A stretch of 64,000 nucleotides of DNA from an uncultured Muribaculaceae bacterium (GTDB taxonomy: Bacteria; Bacteroidota; Bacteroidia; Bacteroidales; Muribaculaceae): the NCBI GenBank assembly GCA_964517875.1, contig CAZFEU010000001.1:22831-86830 (forward strand), written 5' to 3'. Below, one piece after another: positions 39,964-50,264 of this stretch. Every line of letters starts with the position of its first letter. Within the stretch, counting starts at the first letter, position 1. Under the pieces are notes generated by a model. That model saw only the letters and a program-made list of their open reading frames with translations. It searched no databases and was not told the DNA's origin. Made by a program: the position numbers and the translations under genes.

Positions 39964-42558
39964 ATGAATTTCAATAACTTTACAATCAAGTCGCAGGAAG
40001 CTATCCAGAAGGCTGTAGAAATCACCCGCAGCGCTGGTAGTCAGGCCATAGAGCCTGTTCACCTGCTCAAAGGCGTTATCACTGAGGGAGAGACATTAGT
40101 GAAGTTCATATTCCAGAAAATCGGGGCCAATATTCAGCTACTACAGCAGCAAGTTGACCGCGAAATATCTTCGCTCCCCAAAGTGTCGGGTGGCGAGCCC
40201 TACCTGAGTCGTACATCAAATGATGTATTGCAACGCGCTCTTGACATCGCAAAAAAAGAGGGTGATGAATATGTAACACTTGAGGCTTTGCTGATGGCGA
40301 TCTTCATCATCAACTCCCCCGCTTCAACCATTCTTAAAGACGCAGGCTTGAGCGAGAAGGAGCTGAAAGCAGCCGTTGATGAACTCCGCAAAGGTAAGAA
40401 AGCAACAGATCAAAACTCGGAGGAAACTTACAACTCCTTATCGAAATATGCGATCAATCTCAATGAGAGAGCTCGTCAAGGCAAGCTTGACCCTGTAATC
40501 GGGCGTGATGACGAAATACGTCGCGTGCTTCAGATTCTGAGTCGTCGCACGAAGAACAACCCAATGCTCATAGGTGAGCCTGGTACTGGTAAGACCGCCA
40601 TTGCCGAAGGTCTTGCTATGCGTATCGTAAGAGGCGATGTGCCCGAAAATTTAAGATCAAAGCAGATTTATTCGCTTGATATGGGCGCACTTGTAGCCGG
40701 CGCTAAGTATAAAGGAGAGTTTGAAGAGCGACTCAAAGCCATCGTCAACGAAGTAACCCAAGCTGATGGAGAGATAATCCTATTTATCGACGAGATCCAC
40801 ACCCTTGTCGGAGCTGGCAAAGGGGAGGGAGCAATGGATGCTGCCAATATCCTAAAACCTGCTTTGGCTCGTGGCGAGCTACGCTCAATCGGCGCCACAA
40901 CTCTCGATGAATATCAAAAATATTTTGAGAAAGATAAGGCACTTGAACGTCGTTTCCAGAAAGTGATGGTAAATGAGCCTGACGAGATCAGTGCAATTGC
41001 CATATTGCGTGGACTTAAGGAGCGCTACGAGAACCACCACAAAGTGCGTATCCGTGACGAAGCGATTATTGCCGCCGTACAGCTTTCTGAACGCTATATT
41101 ACTGACCGTTTCCTCCCCGATAAAGCGATCGACCTGGTAGATGAGGCCGCTGCAAAGCTTCGTCTTGAGATTGACTCTGTGCCTCAGGCACTCGATGAAA
41201 TCACACGTCGCATTGCGCAGAAAGAGATTGAACGCGAAGCAATTAAGCGCGAGGGAGATAAGGCCAAGGTGAAAGATATCGAAAAGGAGATTGCCACTAT
41301 GCGTGAACAAGAAAAGGAATATACCGCTAAGTGGAAAGCCGAAAAGGATCTTATCAACCGCATTCAGCAGAATAAAATTGATATCGAACAACTCAATTTC
41401 GATGCCGAGCGTGCTGAGCGTGAAGGTGATTACGCTCGTGTGGCCGAAATTCGCTACTCGCGTATCCAGCAAAAAGAGCAGGAGAACAAAGATATTCAGG
41501 AACAACTGAATATGATGCAAGGCGACCGAGCCCTTATAAAGGAGGAAGTAGATGCCGAGGATATAGCCGACGTAGTATCGCGCTGGACCGGGATACCTGT
41601 CAACAAGATGATACAGAGCGAGCAGGAAAAACTGCTCCACCTTGAGGAGGAGCTCCACCATAGAGTTGTAGGACAGGATGATGCCATCCGTGCCATAGCT
41701 GACGCTGTGCGCCGCTCGCGTGCTGGCCTTAACGACCCACGCCGTCCTATCGGATCGTTCATCTTCCTTGGTACTACCGGCGTTGGTAAAACTGAGCTTG
41801 CAAAGGCATTGGCCGAATACCTGTTTGACGACGACTCGATGATGACTCGTATCGATATGAGCGAGTATCAGGAGAAGCACTCTGTGAGCCGACTCGTAGG
41901 AGCGCCTCCCGGATACGTCGGCTATGATGAAGGTGGCCAGCTTACTGAGGCTGTGCGTCGTAAGCCATATTCAGTTGTGCTGTTTGATGAGATAGAAAAG
42001 GCTCACCCGGATGTATTCAACATTCTGCTCCAGGTGCTCGACGACGGACATCTTACGGATAATAAGGGCCGACTTGTCAACTTCAAGAACACTATCATCA
42101 TTATGACTTCAAACATGGGCTCCGCTCTGATTCGTGATAATTTCTCTAAAATGACTCACGAAAACCGCGATGAGACCATTGAAAAGACCAAGAATGAAGT
42201 TCTTGAGCTTCTCAAGCAGACAATACGTCCTGAATTCCTGAACCGTATTGATGAAATCATCATGTTCACCCCCCTTAATCAGAATGAGATTGAGGAGATT
42301 GTAGGACTTCAGATCGACTCAGTGAAGCGTATGCTCGCCAAAAATGGTGTGGAATTGCAGATTACACCTGCAGCACTCCACTTCCTGGCCGAAGAGGGTT
42401 ACGACCCCGAGTTTGGTGCACGCCCCGTTAAGCGAGTTATTCATCGTATGGTGCTCAACCGCCTGTCGAAGGACATCCTCGCACAGAAGGTCGACCGCAC
42501 TCGTCCTATCGTCATTGACTATGATAAAGAAAATGACGATGTAATCTTTACCAACTGA
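39964..42558 (+). CDS. clpB: ATP-dependent chaperone ClpB
   Basis: 864 aa with two AAA+ modules ([10 protein letters not shown] and [11 protein letters not shown]) separated by a long coiled-coil M-domain. Confidence 0.95.
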
Positions 42559-42637: not shown

Positions 42638-43606
42638 TTAGACCGTGATTACGATTTTGCCGGCAAGGCTCCTTTGCTCGGCAAGCGTGTGAGCTTCGTC
42701 TATATGCTGCAATGTGTACTTGGCTGCTATGACGGGATGGATATTATGAGCCTCAATAAGTTTCAGCATAGCATCAATTTGCTCTTGTGTTGGATTATTG
42801 CTATAAAAGCCTGTGAGATAAACGCCTGAGGGTATTTCTTTAATAGGGTCAAAATCCTTAAGGGAGAAAACATTACCGAGCAAACCGGTATGACACACTA
42901 TGCCATGAAGAGCGGTGACCCGTAATGATTGTGGTATAGTTGCTGCCCCAATAAGCTCAAGCACTTTGGTTGCTCCATGTGGGTACGCTCTTAAGAATCG
43001 CTTGACAAAATTATCTCCTTCGAGTACCACGCCGTCGGCACCTGCATCCAGCAGTAATTGTACTTTCTTATCGTTGCGTGTCGTTGCGATAACTTTTGCT
43101 CCCATTGCTTTACCAAGCTGAATTGCCGCAAGCCCGACGGTTGAAGTGCCTCCCCTTATCAACAAAGTGTCACCAACGTGTAATTGCAGTGATAATGTCA
43201 GTGAGCCATAAGCTGTATAAAATGTCTCTGGCACAGCAGCAAGTTCGCAGTCGGTAAGGGAGGAGTCAACAGCAAACACATGGCTCTCGGGCAATAATGC
43301 ATATTCAGCATAACTACCATTGAAACTGCGCCCCATGCCACCCATCATCGCAATGACGGTTTGAGAAATTTTAAATTTTGAGTCAGACTTATCCACGATT
43401 TCTCCAACACATTCTATGCCGGGAATGATTGGTGTGTGGATATACGGTCTATCGGCCTCAAACTGGCGCAACAAAACTTCTGAATGATTAATGCCAAAAG
43501 CTTTGATACGCACTAACACCCAGCCTGGTTTAACTTGTGGTATTGGCACATCAGTCAAAGTAAGATCAGAGGCGGCACAACAATGGTTGATTAGTACAGC
43601 TTTCAT
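42638..43606 (-). CDS. Zinc-type alcohol dehydrogenase-like / quinone oxidoreductase (MDR superfamily)
   Basis: Has a GroES-like N-terminus and a Rossmann motif (IRGGTSTVGLAAIQL). The start is set at MKAVLINH (ATG 43606..43604), which forms an ATGA overlap with the stop of the upstream rSAM gene. Confidence 0.8.
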   Translation of the reverse strand: MKAVLINHCCAASDLTLTDVPIPQVKPGWVLVRIKAFGINHSEVLLRQFEADRPYIHTPIIPGIECVGEIVDKSDSKFKISQTVIAMMGGMGRSFNGSYAEYALLPESHVFAVDSSLTDCELAAVPETFYTAYGSLTLSLQLHVGDTLLIRGGTSTVGLAAIQLGKAMGAKVIATTRNDKKVQLLLDAGADGVVLEGDNFVKRFLRAYPHGATKVLELIGAATIPQSLRVTALHGIVCHTGLLGNVFSLKDFDPIKEIPSGVYLTGFYSNNPTQEQIDAMLKLIEAHNIHPVIAAKYTLQHIDEAHTLAEQRSLAGKIVITV

Positions 43607-44622
43607 ATTTCTTTCCAACATTGAGGGTCGGGTGCATAAAACGAGTGGTGATAACCGTATGCCACGGCCGGACATCCGCGACAGAATCTGAGCAACTCGC
43701 ACTTTGCACATTTTTGAAATTTATCAAACTGGCGGTACTCGTTCATCTTTTCACCAGTCCACAAATCGTGAATATCTGTTTTGAAAAGATTGCCTACCAC
43801 GCTATCAAAACGTCGGCAAGCCATTACTTTCCCATCAGGCTGGATGGTGAAGTGGCAATCTCCGCAGTGGCAACCGTCGTAAATAGCATCGGGGTCGGTA
43901 TCATCGGGAATCTTAAAGAGTCCCTTTTCAAAAAGATATAGAGTCCAAAGGTGATCTTTAAGATTGAATATTGTATGAGCATCTTTATGTTGCTCGAATT
44001 TCTTCCAAATTGTATCAAGGAAGTTGCGATAATCAATAGGGGTGATATGGGTTGATTTCTCATCAGATGTCGGGCAATATCGTCCGAACGCAAACACATC
44101 AACACCTTTTTCCACCACCAAGTCAATAATATCAGGAATCTCTTGAATATTAGTACCTGAAACGGTGGTCATTACAGCCACTCGTATACCATTGCGTTTG
44201 AGCACATCAATCTTCTCAACCGTAGTGTCAAACGACCCTTTCTTTCGAATTCCATCGTGAGTGTCGCGCATGCCGTCGATTGAAAGTTGATATTTCTCAC
44301 AGCCGTAATACTTAAGGCGTTGGCACACTTCATCTGTGATATGAAAGGGATTGCCAAGAATGGTAAATGGGATTTTGTGCTCTTTCACTAACTTCAATAT
44401 CTTCCAAAAATCACGATGTAGAATTGGATCACCACCAGTGATATAGAGATATGGAAGCTTATGCATCTTTCTGCACATTTCAACACATTGTTCTATTACC
44501 ATCCGTGCTTTTGACAAGGGCATTTCGATAAGTCTGGGATGTCCCTCAGCGAATATGTAGCAGTGTTCACAGCGTTGGTCGCAACTATCAGTTATATGCC
44601 ATTGAAAAGCGAAATACTCCAT
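43603..44622 (-). CDS. Radical SAM/SPASM-domain peptide-modifying enzyme
   Basis: Has the N-terminal CX3CX2C motif (CDQRCEHC) and a GGDP motif. The C-terminal Cys-rich SPASM-like region is CHCGDCHFTIQPDGKVMAC...CAKCELLRFCRGC...DPQC. It sits directly downstream of a Cys-rich repeat peptide. Confidence 0.85.
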   Translation of the reverse strand: MEYFAFQWHITDSCDQRCEHCYIFAEGHPRLIEMPLSKARMVIEQCVEMCRKMHKLPYLYITGGDPILHRDFWKILKLVKEHKIPFTILGNPFHITDEVCQRLKYYGCEKYQLSIDGMRDTHDGIRKKGSFDTTVEKIDVLKRNGIRVAVMTTVSGTNIQEIPDIIDLVVEKGVDVFAFGRYCPTSDEKSTHITPIDYRNFLDTIWKKFEQHKDAHTIFNLKDHLWTLYLFEKGLFKIPDDTDPDAIYDGCHCGDCHFTIQPDGKVMACRRFDSVVGNLFKTDIHDLWTGEKMNEYRQFDKFQKCAKCELLRFCRGCPAVAYGYHHSFYAPDPQCWKEI

Positions 44623-44654: not shown

Positions 44655-44687
44655 GCTCCAATGCGCCTACTTCAGGAGCATTGGAGC
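44655..44687 (-). terminator. Intercistronic stem-loop between the precursor peptide and the rSAM gene (putative leaky terminator or attenuator)
   Basis: Perfect 10-bp stem GCTCCAATGC/GCATTGGAGC with a 13-nt loop, followed on the minus-strand transcript by UUUCAAUUUU. It lies 32 nt before the maturase ATG. Confidence 0.55.
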
Positions 44688-44706: not shown

Positions 44707-44880
44707 TTATTTCTCACCGGCTCCACATGCCGAACCGCATGCTGCGGGCTTGGGCTCAGGCTTTTCATCGCCAGCACCACAAGCCGAACCACATGCACCC
44801 GCAGGTTTCTCGGTTTCAGCTGAAGCACACAGATAAGCCTGTGCGGTGTGCTTTACAGCACCATTGTTGATACGCTTCAT
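44707..44880 (-). CDS. 57-aa Cys-rich tandem-repeat peptide, putative rSAM substrate (ACGX-repeat-like precursor)
   Basis: Manual translation gives MKRINNGAVKHTAQAYLCASAETEKPAGACGSACGAGDEKPEPKPAACGSACGAGEK, running from ATG to TAA. The two ACGSACGAG copies differ at 5 synonymous and 0 non-synonymous positions. It is below the 60-aa cutoff of the supplied ORF track. Confidence 0.7.
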   Translation of the reverse strand: MKRINNGAVKHTAQAYLCASAETEKPAGACGSACGAGDEKPEPKPAACGSACGAGEK

Positions 44881-44920: not shown

Positions 44921-44928
44921 CAAATGTA
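44921..44928 (-). promoter_or_regulatory. Candidate -7 promoter element (TAcaTTTG on the minus strand) for the peptide-rSAM operon
   Basis: The reverse complement of CAAATGTA matches TAnnTTTG, about 40 nt upstream of the peptide ATG. Confidence 0.35.
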
Positions 44929-45101
44929 GAATATTATTTTTAAGGAATCAAGTAGAGGAAATTTTATCACTTAGTAACCTTTTTCTCGCTTTTGTGTAGC
45001 AACTACATCCTAATTGAATCATTTGTAAAAAAGAATTTTTCCGGGTAGAATTCCAGTGGCTTTTGAGCGACTCTATATTTGCCTAACCATTGAAATTGGT
45101 A

Positions 45102-45109
45102 TATCTTTG
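45102..45109 (+). promoter_or_regulatory. Candidate -7 promoter element (TAtcTTTG) for the HxlR-family regulator
   Basis: TAnnTTTG match about 22 nt upstream of the ATG at 45131. A second match, TAtaTTTG, lies at 45074..45081. Confidence 0.35.
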
Positions 45110-45130
45110 TGTCGAAAAGGTGAAAAAATC

Positions 45131-45517
45131 ATGAGAAGAAAAGAACAGCTTAATTCCATTATAGAGATCTGTCCGGTGCGCAATGTGGTAGCACGTTTTG
45201 GCAACAAATGGGCACTGTTGGTGCTCCTTGTAATAAGTGAAAACGAGCCTATTCGATACAATGAGCTCGGACGCAAAATCCCTGACATATCATCACGTGT
45301 GCTCTCGGGGACTTTACGTACCCTCGAGGCCGATGGTCTGGTAAGTAGAAAACTTTACAATGAGGTGCCGGCAAGAGTAGAGTATTCTCTCACTGAAATA
45401 GGACATTCACTTATCCCCATAATCATGCAATTGACCGAGTGGGCACAGAACAATATGAAAACCATAATTGCACACCGAAAGAATAGTGAAATCGATGATA
45501 TGTCAGATAAATCCTGA
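45131..45517 (+). CDS. HxlR-family winged-helix transcriptional regulator
   Basis: CPVRNVVARFGNKWALLVLL...RYNEL...ISSRVLSGTLRTLEADGLVSRK.Y.EVPARVEYSLTE is a classic HxlR/MarR-like signature. The start is set at ATG 45131. Confidence 0.85.
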   Translation: MRRKEQLNSIIEICPVRNVVARFGNKWALLVLLVISENEPIRYNELGRKIPDISSRVLSGTLRTLEADGLVSRKLYNEVPARVEYSLTEIGHSLIPIIMQLTEWAQNNMKTIIAHRKNSEIDDMSDKS

Positions 45518-45557: not shown

Positions 45558-46421
45558 TTATTTTTTGTTAGCCGAGCGCCGCATCATGAAGATAGCAGCT
45601 GCGGTGAATAGAAGTGAGAGGATGACTATTGGCAGACTTCCTTCACCTTGAGCGATGTGGTCGATATCGGTTTCAGACGACAATTCGCCATGCGCTGCCA
45701 TCCACGAGGTTATCACCACCAATGAGTTATTAAGCGCATGAAGAATTATAGGGAGCCATAGCGAACCGCTCCACCACATTGAGTAGCCAAAAAATGCTCC
45801 GAGCAATACGCGCGGCACGAACCCATAGAGCTGAAGATGCATTGCGCTAAATATGATGGCCGCTATCCATATCGCCAGGTGAGGATTGATACGAGAGCAT
45901 ATTAGCAGTTTCTGAATGCCCCCACGGAAAAACATTTCTTCAGCTATGCCTGTAAGCACTCCCACTATTAGTACCGAGATAATCAACGAACCAATCGAAG
46001 TGCCACCAAGCATAACTTGGGTTGTAAGACGTGCATCCTCCTCAAGCCGTCTTGCCCATCCCATGCTGTCAGGTAGATTCCATCCGTCGTTCCACTCAAT
46101 CACGGCATTCATAGCCGGTATACTTATCAGTAGCGCCAGTATCGCCCAAAGTGTAGTGACGAATCTCGGTCCATGCATCACTTCAAGCAATTCACCGGGA
46201 TAACGTGTGGTGAGCAGTGCGGTGACAATAGCGGGTAGTATAAACACGAGCACATCTTGTAGCACCGCCATTATGCGTAATGAAGCAACCGTGCCACCAA
46301 TTACGTTTGAAAGAAGCTGTGTGAGCAGTGACGTTACCACAAGCATGAATATCATCAGGCAAAAGAGCATACCCAGTGCAAGTGAGGGCTTTACGGCGGT
46401 GCGATATCGGTTGTAAGTCAT
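45558..46421 (-). CDS. CPBP-family intramembrane glutamic endopeptidase (CAAX protease-like)
   Basis: Multi-TM protein with EEMFFRG, FSAMHL and HALNN motifs. Confidence 0.8.
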   Translation of the reverse strand: MTYNRYRTAVKPSLALGMLFCLMIFMLVVTSLLTQLLSNVIGGTVASLRIMAVLQDVLVFILPAIVTALLTTRYPGELLEVMHGPRFVTTLWAILALLISIPAMNAVIEWNDGWNLPDSMGWARRLEEDARLTTQVMLGGTSIGSLIISVLIVGVLTGIAEEMFFRGGIQKLLICSRINPHLAIWIAAIIFSAMHLQLYGFVPRVLLGAFFGYSMWWSGSLWLPIILHALNNSLVVITSWMAAHGELSSETDIDHIAQGEGSLPIVILSLLFTAAAIFMMRRSANKK

Positions 46422-47669: not shown

Positions 47670-50264
47670 ATGAACCATGAAATAGCCCGCCCTCATCAGC
47701 TGAGAGGCATGTTCCAAAACTGGTTTCTCGATTTTGCCTCATATGTGATATTGGAGCGCGCAGTGCCTCATATCGATGATGGCCTCAAGCCGGTACAACG
47801 TCGTCTTATGCACTCGCTGCAGACCGTTGACGATGGACACTTCATAAAAGTGGCTACCGTGGTGGGTGAGACCATGAAATATCACCCTCACGGCGATGCG
47901 TCTATCAATGATGCTCTTGTTACTTTAGGTCAAAAGGGATTGCTCGTCGATACCCAGGGCAACTGGGGTAATATACTCACCGGCGCATCGGCGGCTGCCG
48001 GTCGATACATCGAGGCCCGATTATCGACATTTGCACTCGAGACTGTGTATAACCCGAAAATCACTGAGTGGGTGCCCTCATACGACGGACGCAACCGTGA
48101 GCCGGTGACACTTCCAGTTAAATTTCCACTTTTGCTTGTGCAGGGAGTGGAGGGTATAGCGGTGGGATTATCGTCTAAAATTCTGCCACACAACTTCAAC
48201 GAGGTGTGCGACGCAGCTGTAAGCTATCTTCAGGGAGAAGACTTCAATCTATATCCCGACTTCCCCACAGGTGGTTTTATTGATGTGAGCCGATACAACG
48301 ACGGTGCACGCGGCGGAGCAGTGAAGATACGTGCTAAGATTGAAAAAGTCGACAATAAAACCCTTGCCATCACAGAGATACCCTATGGCAAAACCACCGG
48401 TGTCATTATTGATTCGATTCTTAAGGCTTTCGAGAAAGGGAAGATAAAAATACGCAAAATCGATGACAATACTGCCGAGCAGGCCCGAATCATGGTGTAT
48501 CTGATCCCGGGCACTTCGAGCGATAAGGCTATCGATGCCCTCTACGCTTTCACCGACTGCGAGGTGAGTGTGTCGTCCAACTGCTGTGTGATCCGCGACA
48601 AGCGCCCTGAATTTCTTGGAGTGGGTGATGTGCTTCGCCATAGTGTTGACCGCACAATCGACCTTTTCCGCAGTGAATTTGAAATACAGCTCGGCGAGCT
48701 ACGCGAACTTCTATTTTTCGCAACGCTTGAACGCTTATTTATCGAAAACCGCATATATAAAGACAAGGAATATGAGCACGCTGAATCGACTGAGTCGGCT
48801 ATCGCTCACGTCAAGGGACGACTCATACCGCTGGTTGATGAATATTACCGCGACATCACCGACGACGATGTGAAACGCCTATTTGACATACCGATGAAGC
48901 GCATTTTCCGCTTCAACTCCGACAAGGCCGACCAGGTAATTGCCAACTATAAGTCAAAGATTGAAGAGCTACTGTATAAGTTGTCGCATCTCACTGAAGT
49001 GACTATCGAATGGTTTAAACACCTTAAGGAGAAATATGGTGCCGCTTTCCCCCGACGCACCACACTGCGCAATTTCGACAACATCGAGGCAGCTACTGTG
49101 GCCGAAGCTAATGAAAAGCTCTACATCAACCGTGAGGAAGGATTTATAGGCACATCGCTCAAGAAAGATGAATTTGTGTGCAACTGCTCTGCCATCGATG
49201 ATATCATAATATTTTACAAAGATGGACGCTACAAGGTGGTGAAGGTGCAGGAAAAGCTATTTGTTGATAAGAATGTACTGTATATCAACGTGTTCAAACG
49301 CAATGATCAGCGCACTATATACAATGTGATATACCAGAATGGTCGTGGTGGCGTTTATTACATGAAACGCTTCAGCGTAACTGGCATAACACGTGACAAA
49401 GAGTACAATCTCACCCCCGGAGCCCCTGGCACAAAGGTTGTATGGTTCTCTGCCAATCCTAATGGAGAGGCTGAGGTGGTGAAAGTGACTCTAAAGCCCA
49501 AGCCAAGGCTCAAGACTCTGCAATTTGATGTTGATTTCAGCCAACTCGCCATCAAGGGCAAGCAGTCGTTGGGTAATCTCGTCACCAAAAACGAGGTTCA
49601 TCGCCTGTCGCTCAAGGAGCGCGGTGTTTCTACCCTCGGAGGCCGTAAAGTATGGTTTGATCCCGATGTGCTCCGTCTTAACTACGACGGCAGGGGCAAC
49701 TATTTAGGGGAATTTTCAGGTGGCGATCAGATACTTGTAATTCTCAAATCGGGTGAATACTACATGACCACATATGATGCCGGCAACCATTATGAGGATA
49801 ATATACTACGCATAGAAAAATTCCGCAAAGGCACAATATGGACGGCGGCACTCAACGATGCCGATCAAGGTTATCCCTATCTAAAACGGTTCTTATTCGA
49901 ACCCACAGCACGCAAACAGCGATACCTGGGCGAAAATGAACAGTCGACACTTATTGCACTCACTGATGCTCCGGGAGCACGGTTTGAGGTGAAATTTGGT
50001 GGAGCTGACGAGTTCCGTGAACCTCTGATCATCGACGCCCATGAGTTCATAGCAATAAAGTCGGTTAAAGCCAAAGGAAAGCGCATCTCCAATTACACAA
50101 TTGAGTCCATCACAGAAATTGAGCCTGTCGAAGTGCCTCAAGATGAGATTCCGGACGGCAATGAGGAAGCAGAGGTTCAAGATGTAGAACCACTCGAGCC
50201 GGAGCTGAGCGATGACGAAGTGCGCGATGAAATACTTGGTCAACAACGCTTATTTGATGACTGA
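47670..50264 (+). CDS. parC: DNA topoisomerase IV subunit A (type IIA topoisomerase A subunit)
   Basis: 864 aa with RAVPHIDDGLKPVQRRLMHSL, HPHGD and the catalytic-Tyr region AAGRYIEARLS. The N-terminus and acidic tail resemble Bacteroidetes ParC rather than GyrA. Confidence 0.85.
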   Translation: MNHEIARPHQLRGMFQNWFLDFASYVILERAVPHIDDGLKPVQRRLMHSLQTVDDGHFIKVATVVGETMKYHPHGDASINDALVTLGQKGLLVDTQGNWGNILTGASAAAGRYIEARLSTFALETVYNPKITEWVPSYDGRNREPVTLPVKFPLLLVQGVEGIAVGLSSKILPHNFNEVCDAAVSYLQGEDFNLYPDFPTGGFIDVSRYNDGARGGAVKIRAKIEKVDNKTLAITEIPYGKTTGVIIDSILKAFEKGKIKIRKIDDNTAEQARIMVYLIPGTSSDKAIDALYAFTDCEVSVSSNCCVIRDKRPEFLGVGDVLRHSVDRTIDLFRSEFEIQLGELRELLFFATLERLFIENRIYKDKEYEHAESTESAIAHVKGRLIPLVDEYYRDITDDDVKRLFDIPMKRIFRFNSDKADQVIANYKSKIEELLYKLSHLTEVTIEWFKHLKEKYGAAFPRRTTLRNFDNIEAATVAEANEKLYINREEGFIGTSLKKDEFVCNCSAIDDIIIFYKDGRYKVVKVQEKLFVDKNVLYINVFKRNDQRTIYNVIYQNGRGGVYYMKRFSVTGITRDKEYNLTPGAPGTKVVWFSANPNGEAEVVKVTLKPKPRLKTLQFDVDFSQLAIKGKQSLGNLVTKNEVHRLSLKERGVSTLGGRKVWFDPDVLRLNYDGRGNYLGEFSGGDQILVILKSGEYYMTTYDAGNHYEDNILRIEKFRKGTIWTAALNDADQGYPYLKRFLFEPTARKQRYLGENEQSTLIALTDAPGARFEVKFGGADEFREPLIIDAHEFIAIKSVKAKGKRISNYTIESITEIEPVEVPQDEIPDGNEEAEVQDVEPLEPELSDDEVRDEILGQQRLFDD

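Follow-up and report, generated by a model that had tools for sequence, protein, structure and literature searches.

What is a gene of 57 codons for, when it encodes a peptide with repeated Ala-Cys-Gly units and sits directly upstream of the gene of a radical S-adenosylmethionine (rSAM) enzyme, and what may the enzyme do to the peptide? The question is raised by a locus in a stretch of 64,000 nucleotides from an uncultured Muribaculaceae bacterium (contig CAZFEU010000001.1), which we call the window; coordinates are window positions unless a related locus is named. A first-pass annotation had taken the peptide for a member of an "ACGX-repeat peptide" family, described as being defined by its co-occurrence with an rSAM enzyme that carries a SPASM domain. 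Judging from the comparative data below, the small gene is real and strongly conserved. Our overall reading, to which we give a probability of about 0.55, is that it encodes an intracellular peptide, modified at its cysteines, in an operon that responds to redox or electrophile stress, and that thiooxazole chemistry like that of the enzyme SbtM is to be favored.

The precursor gene and its family

The open reading frame (ORF) runs on the minus strand from an ATG at 44880 to a TAA at 44707-44709, and its translation is exactly the 57-aa peptide of the first-pass annotation, MKRINNGAVKHTAQAYLCASAETEKPAGACGSACGAGDEKPEPKPAACGSACGAGEK. The gene and its parts are listed here, with the ratio of nonsynonymous to synonymous change (dN/dS) of each.

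44707..44880, minus strand: ORF of the ACGX-repeat precursor peptide, 57 aa plus TAA stop; matches TIGR04341, present in 78/78 loci, overall dN/dS 0.07
44827..44853, minus strand: leader motif KHTAQAYLC, aa 10-18, the presumed recognition element; dN/dS 0.031, for 0.21-0.26 in the flanking leader segments
44767..44796, minus strand: module 1, ACGSACGAGD, aa 29-38; dN/dS 0.004
44743..44766, minus strand: Pro/Glu/Lys spacer EKPEPKPA, aa 39-46; dN/dS 0.036; spacers of the KPE(E/P)KP type are found family-wide
44710..44742, minus strand: module 2, ACGSACGAGEK, aa 47-57, C-terminal; dN/dS 0.005

The two modules have the same protein sequence over ACGSACGAG (44770..44796 and 44716..44742), while their DNA differs at five codons, all synonymously (TGT/TGC, GCT/GCA, GGT/GGA, GCT/GCC, GGC/GGT), which had been taken as a sign of selection on the peptide. 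The peptide has five cysteines, C18 in the leader and four in A-C-G-X units (ACGS, ACGA, ACGS, ACGA). There is no in-frame TGA (selenocysteine codon) in the precursor, all of whose reactive residues are cysteines, and the leader has neither a signal peptide nor a double-glycine site. No second ACGX-like ORF was found within the 64-kb window. The first-pass description of the sequence proved correct throughout. That the ORF was called unannotated goes back to the list of ORFs used for the first pass, which had a floor of 60 aa; an identical 57-aa protein is already called as a gene product in a public collection.

The selection on the peptide is borne out by a comparison with 80 related genomic loci, all from Muribaculaceae-type metagenome-assembled genomes (MAGs), in which the rSAM enzyme, hereafter the maturase, is 72-83% identical to that of the window (the nearest relatives, at 83%, are also Muribaculaceae-type MAGs). 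The small ORF is present next to the maturase gene, in the same orientation, in all 78 loci that include DNA upstream of that gene, and its frame is intact in 76 of them; of the other two, one runs off its contig and one, L075 (1609-1794), is interrupted by a premature stop in the leader (MKRTSASGV, stop, SAKRSAQ...), for which a pseudogene, an assembly error or a downstream start are all possible explanations. Among 52 gap-free orthologues, whose synonymous sites are near saturation (proportion of synonymous differences, pS, 0.67), dN/dS is 0.07 overall, 0.2-0.26 in the remainder of the leader, 0.03 in KHTAQAYLC, 0.04 in the spacer and 0.004-0.005 in the modules. Variation at codon positions 1, 2 and 3 (0.063, 0.078 and 0.394, respectively) has the three-base periodicity of a coding sequence. 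In the related loci, modules that encode the same protein within a single gene differ by 0-8 of 27 nt, synonymously, which rules out a recent DNA duplication and a non-coding repeat. The position of C18 is occupied by Cys in 72 of 77 loci, by Arg in three and by Asn in two; since five relatives do without it, this leader cysteine is unlikely to be essential.

The family named at the first pass was the right one. The peptide, with its tandem A-C-G-X units, matches TIGR04341 ("ACGX-repeat peptide" in NCBIfam) with 35.6 bits for a cut-off of 28 (E 1.1e-8, residues 7-57 aligned), and it adjoins, on the same strand, a gene whose product matches TIGR04340 ("radical SAM/SPASM domain protein, ACGX system") over its full length, with 555.8 bits for a cut-off of 400. 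Homologues that are 96% identical to the peptide carry a precomputed match to Pfam PF27855 (Target_ACGX). A search of 5.8 billion proteins gave 675 clusters of peptide homologues at 90% identity; among the matches listed almost all carry PF27855, and NCBI or JGI calls several of them "ACGX-repeat peptide". The homologues of the maturase form more than 3,000 clusters, likewise named as ACGX system. The locus of the window is therefore not a discovery in itself: the family is already curated in NCBIfam and Pfam, and automatically named by NCBI. It had also been thought that the product and its function are undescribed, and indeed our literature searches returned unrelated matches only, with no paper on the ACGX system and no published chemistry or function for it. 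ACGX is thus an abundant orphan system, common in gut Muribaculaceae, and what interest remains lies in its uncharacterised chemistry and in the hypothesis that its gene context suggests.

The anatomy of the peptides was examined on a logo built from 263 peptides and 551 modules, which reads [AGS]-A-C-G-[S/T]-A-C-G-A-G-[D/E]-K. The Ala before the first Cys is conserved in 93% of the modules, the Gly after each Cys in 100%, and an Asp or Glu is found four positions past the second Cys in 93%. The number of modules varies from 1 to 4 per peptide across the family, and the isolated half-units are always of the A-C-G-A-G-D type. In most members, the last CGxxCG is followed by just 4 residues to the C-terminus. 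Two motifs, L-x-x-L-x-x-W and S/T-A-Q-x-Y, are spread over the leader types, each of which has one of them or both; the leader of the window peptide carries the second, which recurs in distant leader types. On this evidence, the gene of the window encodes a translated precursor of the ACGX family, with a leader (aa 1-28) that contains KHTAQAYL and two A-C-G-S-A-C-G-A-G-(D/E)-K modules separated by a PEPKP spacer.

Some database homologues (P0123, P0152, P0220 and P0117) have ACGX leaders followed by unrelated out-of-frame tails, or end after one module; these fused or shortened forms are probably the result of frameshifts or sequencing errors in short metagenome contigs. A genuine form with one module (39 aa, on 17 contigs) may nevertheless exist.

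The maturase and the conserved cassette

The features that surround the precursor gene are as follows.

43603..44622, minus strand: rSAM/SPASM maturase of the ACGX system, 339 aa; TIGR04340, PF04055 and PF13186
42638..43606, minus strand: NAD(P)H quinone-oxidoreductase-like enzyme (QOR) of the MDR family, 322 aa; its ATG overlaps the stop of the maturase gene (ATGA)
44655..44687, minus strand: stem-loop between precursor and maturase, likely a partial terminator or an mRNA-stabilising hairpin
44921..44928, minus strand: candidate -7 promoter box TACATTTG, a Bacteroidetes-type match that recurs in related loci
44948..44993, minus strand: conserved upstream element, AAAAGCGAGAAAAAGGTTACTAAG (44970..44993) ... 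CTACTTGA (44948..44955), a candidate operator and -33 region
45131..45517, plus strand: divergent HxlR-family regulator, 128 aa from its ATG; PF01638, 98 bits; N-terminal Cys-Pro (EICPV)
45558-46421, minus strand: CPBP/Rce1-like intramembrane protease, the gene of which seems to form an operon with those of TrmN-like and RlmH methyltransferases

The maturase gene starts 84 nt downstream of the peptide ORF, on the same strand. The cysteines of its CX3CX2C motif (C14, C18 and C21) and those of its SPASM domain (C251, C253, C269, C305, C308, C314, C317 and C335) are invariant in 104 homologues. The sequence opens directly with the SAM domain, so that the enzyme has no RRE, the recognition domain of enzymes that make ribosomally synthesised and post-translationally modified peptides (RiPPs). 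In an AlphaFold (AF2) model with a mean confidence (pLDDT) of 85, the closest folds in the PDB are those of TigE, SkfB, SuiB and PqqE, which are peptide-modifying SPASM enzymes, and of anSME, a compact enzyme that also has no RRE (template-modelling score, TM, 0.77 by query and 0.72 by target). A sequence search of the PDB gave no close solved homologue of the maturase, the best being SkfB with 61 bits. Among the profiles of characterised families, SbtM scores 179 bits, AhbD 141, NirJ2 119 (100-119 for the profiles of the NirJ family), MftC 90, anSME 73 and PapB 66, and none of the six reaches its cut-off.

Maturases from Muribaculaceae, Treponema, Desulfotomaculum and Caldicellulosiruptoraceae, which span three phyla, share 64-67% identity. 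This is unusually high for a RiPP enzyme (about 65%), and implies either a very strong constraint or the horizontal transfer of the whole HxlR-peptide-rSAM-reductase cassette. The homologues P0348, P0362 and P0363, at 64-67% across Bacteroidota, Spirochaetota and Bacillota, are far above what is expected for such phyla.

The cassette itself is well defined. A divergent HxlR gene is present in 71/80 close loci, and the gene right after that of the maturase always encodes a reductase (80/80), QOR-like in 66 cases and a nitroreductase in the remaining 14. Similar observations were made in seven independent distant contexts (from Paludibacteraceae, Bacteroidaceae, an unassigned MAG, Desulfotomaculum, Treponema and Caldicellulosiruptoraceae): all seven contain HxlR, the peptide and the rSAM enzyme, together with a zinc-dependent alcohol dehydrogenase or QOR, a nitroreductase or an ABM enzyme. 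The peptide adjoins the maturase in every locus examined in the three phyla. On the contrary, no conserved protease, transporter or exporter, or immunity gene was found in the 80 close loci and the seven distant contexts, so that the leader peptidase or exporter that is looked for in a RiPP cluster has no counterpart here.

Regarding transcription, a candidate -7 box had been proposed about 40 nt upstream, and TACATTTG, of Bacteroidetes type, is indeed there, at a distance of 40 nt from the ATG. The pattern TAnnTTTG occurs 23-84 nt upstream of the peptide ORF in 68/73 related loci, mostly at 37-43 nt, which is far beyond chance. Further upstream, the element at 44948..44993 lies between the peptide ORF and the divergent HxlR gene. 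It belongs to a block, AAAAGCGATAAAAAGGTTACT..N..(TGTAACC)TCTTGA, that can be aligned across related loci, and the order common to these loci is AAAAGCGA(T/G)AAAAAGGTTACT...CTTGA, about 20 nt, then TAnnTTTG. We infer from this position that the HxlR regulator may bind the candidate operator. The N-terminal Cys-Pro of the regulator (EICPV) is typical of redox-sensing HxlR/DUF24 regulators. The HxlR ORF as listed (45056-45517, plus strand) opens with a GTG, and the likely start is the ATG at 45131; -7-like boxes are found at 45074-45081 and 45102-45109.

The 101-nt intergenic stretch between precursor and maturase folds with -28.3 kcal/mol (z = -3.45; 0/200 shuffles are equally stable), and a hairpin of 10-19 bp, with unrelated stem sequences, is found at the same place in nearly all related loci in which the gap is at least 46 nt. 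A hairpin between precursor and enzyme genes is a classic means to keep the mRNA of the precursor above that of the enzyme. A search of the intergenic region against Rfam gave no known RNA family, and a simple terminator scan does not call the hairpin at 44655..44687 because its loop is branched. A cupin gene is found in 16/80 close loci. In one of them (L008, 3594-3995) the gene, which encodes about 133 aa with a cupin domain (PF07883), stands between precursor and maturase; tblastn matches to it were obtained in 15 more (L007, L010, L013, L023, L026, L033, L034, L036, L039, L041, L060, L062, L063, L073 and L076), and 12 loci in all have a gap of 454-524 nt between peptide and maturase, as the insertion of a cupin gene would produce.

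At the other end, the oxidoreductase ORF that was listed (357 aa, 42638-43711, minus strand) overlaps the maturase gene by about 109 nt. Its profile matches begin at residue 36, which is why we take the ATG at 43606 for the real start. The junction of the two genes then reads ...ATATGAAA, and the ATGA overlap suggests that the rSAM enzyme and the oxidoreductase are translationally coupled. Taken from the sequence, the arrangement is that of a peptide co-transcribed, from a candidate promoter of Bacteroidetes type, with a dedicated rSAM/SPASM enzyme and a coupled oxidoreductase, opposite a divergent HxlR gene.

The remaining neighbors in the window do not belong to the system. The genes of the CPBP protease, TrmN, RlmH and ClpB are found in none of the 80 related loci, and the CPBP protease was rejected on this basis as a part of the ACGX system or as its leader peptidase. 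A duplication of two ORFs of 864 aa (39964-42558 and 47670-50264, both on the plus strand) was also considered and rejected: one is ClpB (TIGR03346) and the other a GyrA/ParC-type topoisomerase subunit (PF00521), which are unrelated, and their equal length is a coincidence.

In some organisms the cassette is associated with a SirTM sirtuin and a Zn-macrodomain. Both are encoded in the same operon as peptide, rSAM enzyme and reductase in L067 (5619-7245), L077 (5618-7234), L087/88 (L087, 8428-11039), L090 (8038-10115) and L091/92 (L091, 7034-8682), in Bacteroidales, Desulfotomaculum, Treponema and an unassigned MAG, sometimes with a DUF1848 gene. The sirtuin is of the SirTM class (194 bits, E 2e-56 to PDB 5a3a), and the macrodomain of the Zn type (249 bits to 8rsi and 218 bits to 5kiv). 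In a metagenome scan centred on SirTM, the ACGX rSAM enzyme is beside SirTM and the macrodomain in 11/80 loci; the ACGX peptide was found in all 9 of these 11 whose sequence reaches upstream of the maturase gene, and many other SirTM-centred loci have an HxlR gene nearby. Among the 80 close ACGX loci, just two have the SirTM linkage. Neither SirTM nor the macrodomain gave a tblastn match anywhere in the 64-kb window, so that this lead bears on the function of the window peptide by association only. GcvH-L and LplA2 were not seen in the ACGX cassettes, and no literature linking SirTM with radical SAM was found.

Possible chemistry and role of the ACGX peptide

The genomic context (HxlR, an obligatory NAD(P)H reductase, no export machinery and occasionally a SirTM/Zn-macrodomain pair) turns "function unknown" into a specific and testable idea. 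Because the cassette always brings a redox-type regulator and a reductase but no conserved gene for proteolysis, export or immunity, the product would stay in the cell. In the mechanism that we propose, the rSAM enzyme, which is devoid of an RRE, would carry two auxiliary 4Fe-4S clusters besides its SAM cluster. It would bind the leader and the core of the peptide, and at every Cys of an A-C-G unit the 5'-deoxyadenosyl radical would remove a hydrogen. An SbtM-like four-electron oxidation would then cyclise each Cys with the carbonyl of the preceding Ala to a 5-thiooxazole, with a predicted loss of 4.03 Da per Cys and 16.1 Da for the 57-aa peptide. The product would be a thiol- or metal-active peptide in the response to oxidants, electrophiles or metals, and the reductase may recycle it or complete its maturation.

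Provided the peptide is modified at all, we put a thiooxazole first, as a tentative choice held at less than even odds. It is favored because SbtM is the nearest characterised relative of the maturase by profile, because multinuclear iron oxidases (MNIOs) turn tandem X-Cys-Gly units into thiooxazoles in the copper-binding captophorins, and because the ACGX hosts seen (Bacteroidales, Treponema, Desulfotomaculum and Caldicellulosiruptoraceae) are, as far as is known, all anaerobes, in which an O2-dependent MNIO could not work. Cross-links of the S-C thioether type, for example Cys-X3-Asp/Glu, come next and, on the same proviso, follow close behind.

It may even be that anaerobes use the ACGX peptide as a thiol or metal stress factor, for which the rSAM enzyme, as an O2-independent counterpart of the MNIOs, would install thiooxazole-type or related ligands on the A-C-G units, while the reductase would recycle the peptide and HxlR would induce the operon when oxidants, electrophiles or metals cause stress; where SirTM and the Zn-macrodomain share the operon, the peptide would be the target of the "lone" SirTM. 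In that case, the dithiol CX3C and the invariant Asp/Glu would mirror the lipoyl-Lys and Asp27 of GcvH-L. We consider this extended proposal, as a whole, to be unlikely and put it forward as a speculation. If lone SirTM/Zn-Macro pairs act on the ACGX peptide or together with it, as the shared operons suggest may be the case, this may bear on a question raised in the ADP-ribosylation literature: which molecules do SirTM pairs modify when they are encoded outside the GcvH-L operon?

Several points weigh against the reading of an intracellular peptide with SbtM-like thiooxazoles. The modification of the peptide, the atoms involved and the conditions under which the operon is expressed are predictions from sequence. 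The rSAM enzyme fails the cut-off of SbtM (179 vs 350 bits) and is devoid of about 200 N-terminal residues of SbtM, and it resembles AhbD and NirJ, which are tetrapyrrole enzymes, almost as closely as it does SbtM. A thiooxazole explains neither the acidic residue found in 93% of the modules nor the lone ACGAGD half-units, which would better fit a Cys-X3-Asp/Glu thioether or another role of the Asp/Glu. Last, it is only from the gene neighborhood that we deduce both that HxlR regulates the operon and that the peptide stays in the cell.

The alternative that survives best follows from these acidic residues. The product may be like a ranthipeptide or sactipeptide, with thioethers between the Cys sulfur and a carbon atom of some other residue, most likely the conserved Asp/Glu four positions after the second Cys, which would make small rings. 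The geometry is that of PapB, which makes freyrasin and acts on CX3D repeats (Cys-X3-Asp), and both the 93% conservation at position +4 from the second Cys and the fact that lone half-units are always A-C-G-A-G-D are what this chemistry would lead one to expect. In addition, the thioether-forming SkfB is among the nearest solved relatives of the maturase, and the profiles of the PapB, SkfB, StsB and CteB types are all detectable, with 60-66 bits. SbtM (179 bits) and AhbD (141 bits), however, score far higher, and each of the thioether profiles stays below its cut-off; the maturase has no RRE domain. The first Cys of the module has no acidic partner, the residue at its position +4 being the second Cys, and thioether formation is not known to require the Ala at -1 and the Gly at +1 that flank every Cys almost without exception. 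We hold this alternative to be possible, with perhaps one chance to three against it, and keep the thiooxazole reading as the preferred one.

An exported bacteriocin or signalling peptide is much less probable. The CPBP/Rce1-like protease (45558..46421), the gene of which lies about 700 nt upstream on the same strand, would be a candidate for cleavage of the leader or for immunity, and repeated-core precursors are common among secreted RiPPs. However, CPBP, like all other flanking genes, is found in 0/80 related loci, and in none of the phyla is there a conserved gene for transport, proteolysis or immunity. A near-invariant core and a maturase that is 64-67% identical across phyla are the opposite of the usual diversification of antagonistic peptides, and the leader has none of the export signals looked for (signal peptide, double-glycine site).

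A shade further down, and also improbable, comes the idea that the peptide is not a substrate: it would be an unmodified Cys-rich binder of metal or Fe-S (metallothionein-like, or a donor of cluster or sulfur), and the rSAM enzyme would, as do the related AhbD and NirJ, have a small molecule, for instance a tetrapyrrole, as its substrate. The best profile matches do include AhbD (141 bits) and the NirJ family (100-119 bits), and four to five Cys with CX3C spacing could bind a metal without being modified. But peptide and rSAM enzyme are strictly adjacent in all loci and phyla examined, the peptide has the layout of a leader and a core, the conserved motif of the leader being distant from the Cys modules, and a variable number of modules of invariant sequence is typical of recognition units of an enzyme; moreover, the cassette has no tetrapyrrole genes.

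The short length of the ORF (57 codons) and the other small plus-strand ORFs that overlap it might have led one to fear an open frame that arose by chance, or a repeat with no coding function. This has a negligible probability and is rejected, the comparative data (match with E = 1.1e-8, 675 homologous protein clusters, three-base periodicity of the variation, in-frame dN/dS of 0.07, frame intact in 76/78 loci) already refuting it.

Comparison with known systems

SbtM is an rSAM/SPASM enzyme that converts Cys or selenocysteine to a thio(seleno)oxazole with the loss of 4 H (PMC11002830). Its profile (SbtM/SbtMa, TIGR04082) is the closest of the characterised ones, with 179.1 bits (E 1.5e-52) over residues 3-325 of the maturase. 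However, this is below the cut-off of 350, and the maturase matches only positions 198-504 of the 516 of the profile; the ACGX peptide also differs from the SbtM substrate in that it has no selenocysteine codon and has repeated modules.

The captophorins (fontiphorin, oxazolin, gonophorin and the bufferins) are peptides with tandem 5-residue units around an X-Cys-Gly core (EGKCG), every Cys of which becomes a 5-thiooxazole with the loss of 4 H each; they are made by MNIO enzymes, bind copper and are linked to copper and oxidative stress (10.1101/2025.11.18.689057). The resemblance of the ACGX units to theirs is one of analogy. Captophorins are made by a multinuclear iron oxidase that depends on O2 and works with an RRE-type partner, and the ACGX cassette has no gene for such an oxidase; no MNIO (DUF692) gene was seen beside any ACGX locus examined (the window and the seven distant contexts). 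Besides, many captophorin precursors are exported, unlike the ACGX peptide, which has no signal sequence.

Freyrasin/PapB and the SCIFF-type ranthipeptides share with the ACGX system a Cys-rich repeated precursor and an rSAM/SPASM enzyme, and the Cys-X3-Asp pattern resembles the Cys2-G-A-G-D/E of ACGX. The difference lies in the enzymes, since the maturases of the PapB and SCIFF types carry an N-terminal RRE and the score of the ACGX maturase with the PapB profile (NF047865) is 65.9 bits for a cut-off of 340. The likeness to anSME is in the architecture, a compact rSAM and SPASM enzyme with no RRE, and in the reaction of anSME, which takes a hydrogen from the C-beta of a Cys within an unstructured peptide. 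Its profile (TIGR03942) nevertheless gives 73 bits for a cut-off of 349 and there is no sulfatase partner; the substrate motif C-x-P/A-x-R of anSME is absent from the ACGX modules, which read C-G-S-A-C and C-G-A-G-D/E and have no Arg.

The SirTM/Zn-Macro pairs ADP-ribosylate lipoylated GcvH-L, in an oxidative-stress operon that also encodes oxidoreductases (PMC4518038), and the targets of the pairs found outside the GcvH-L operon are stated to be unknown (PMC11490716). The parallel with ACGX is one of logic, a small dithiol-bearing carrier with a nearby Asp and an oxidoreductase.

Compared to the ACGX system itself (TIGR04341/TIGR04340/PF27855), which is defined only by sequence and co-occurrence, with no product, chemistry or function in the literature searched, the locus of the window shows no differences: both genes score above the cut-offs and stand in the expected order, and it is an ordinary member of the family.

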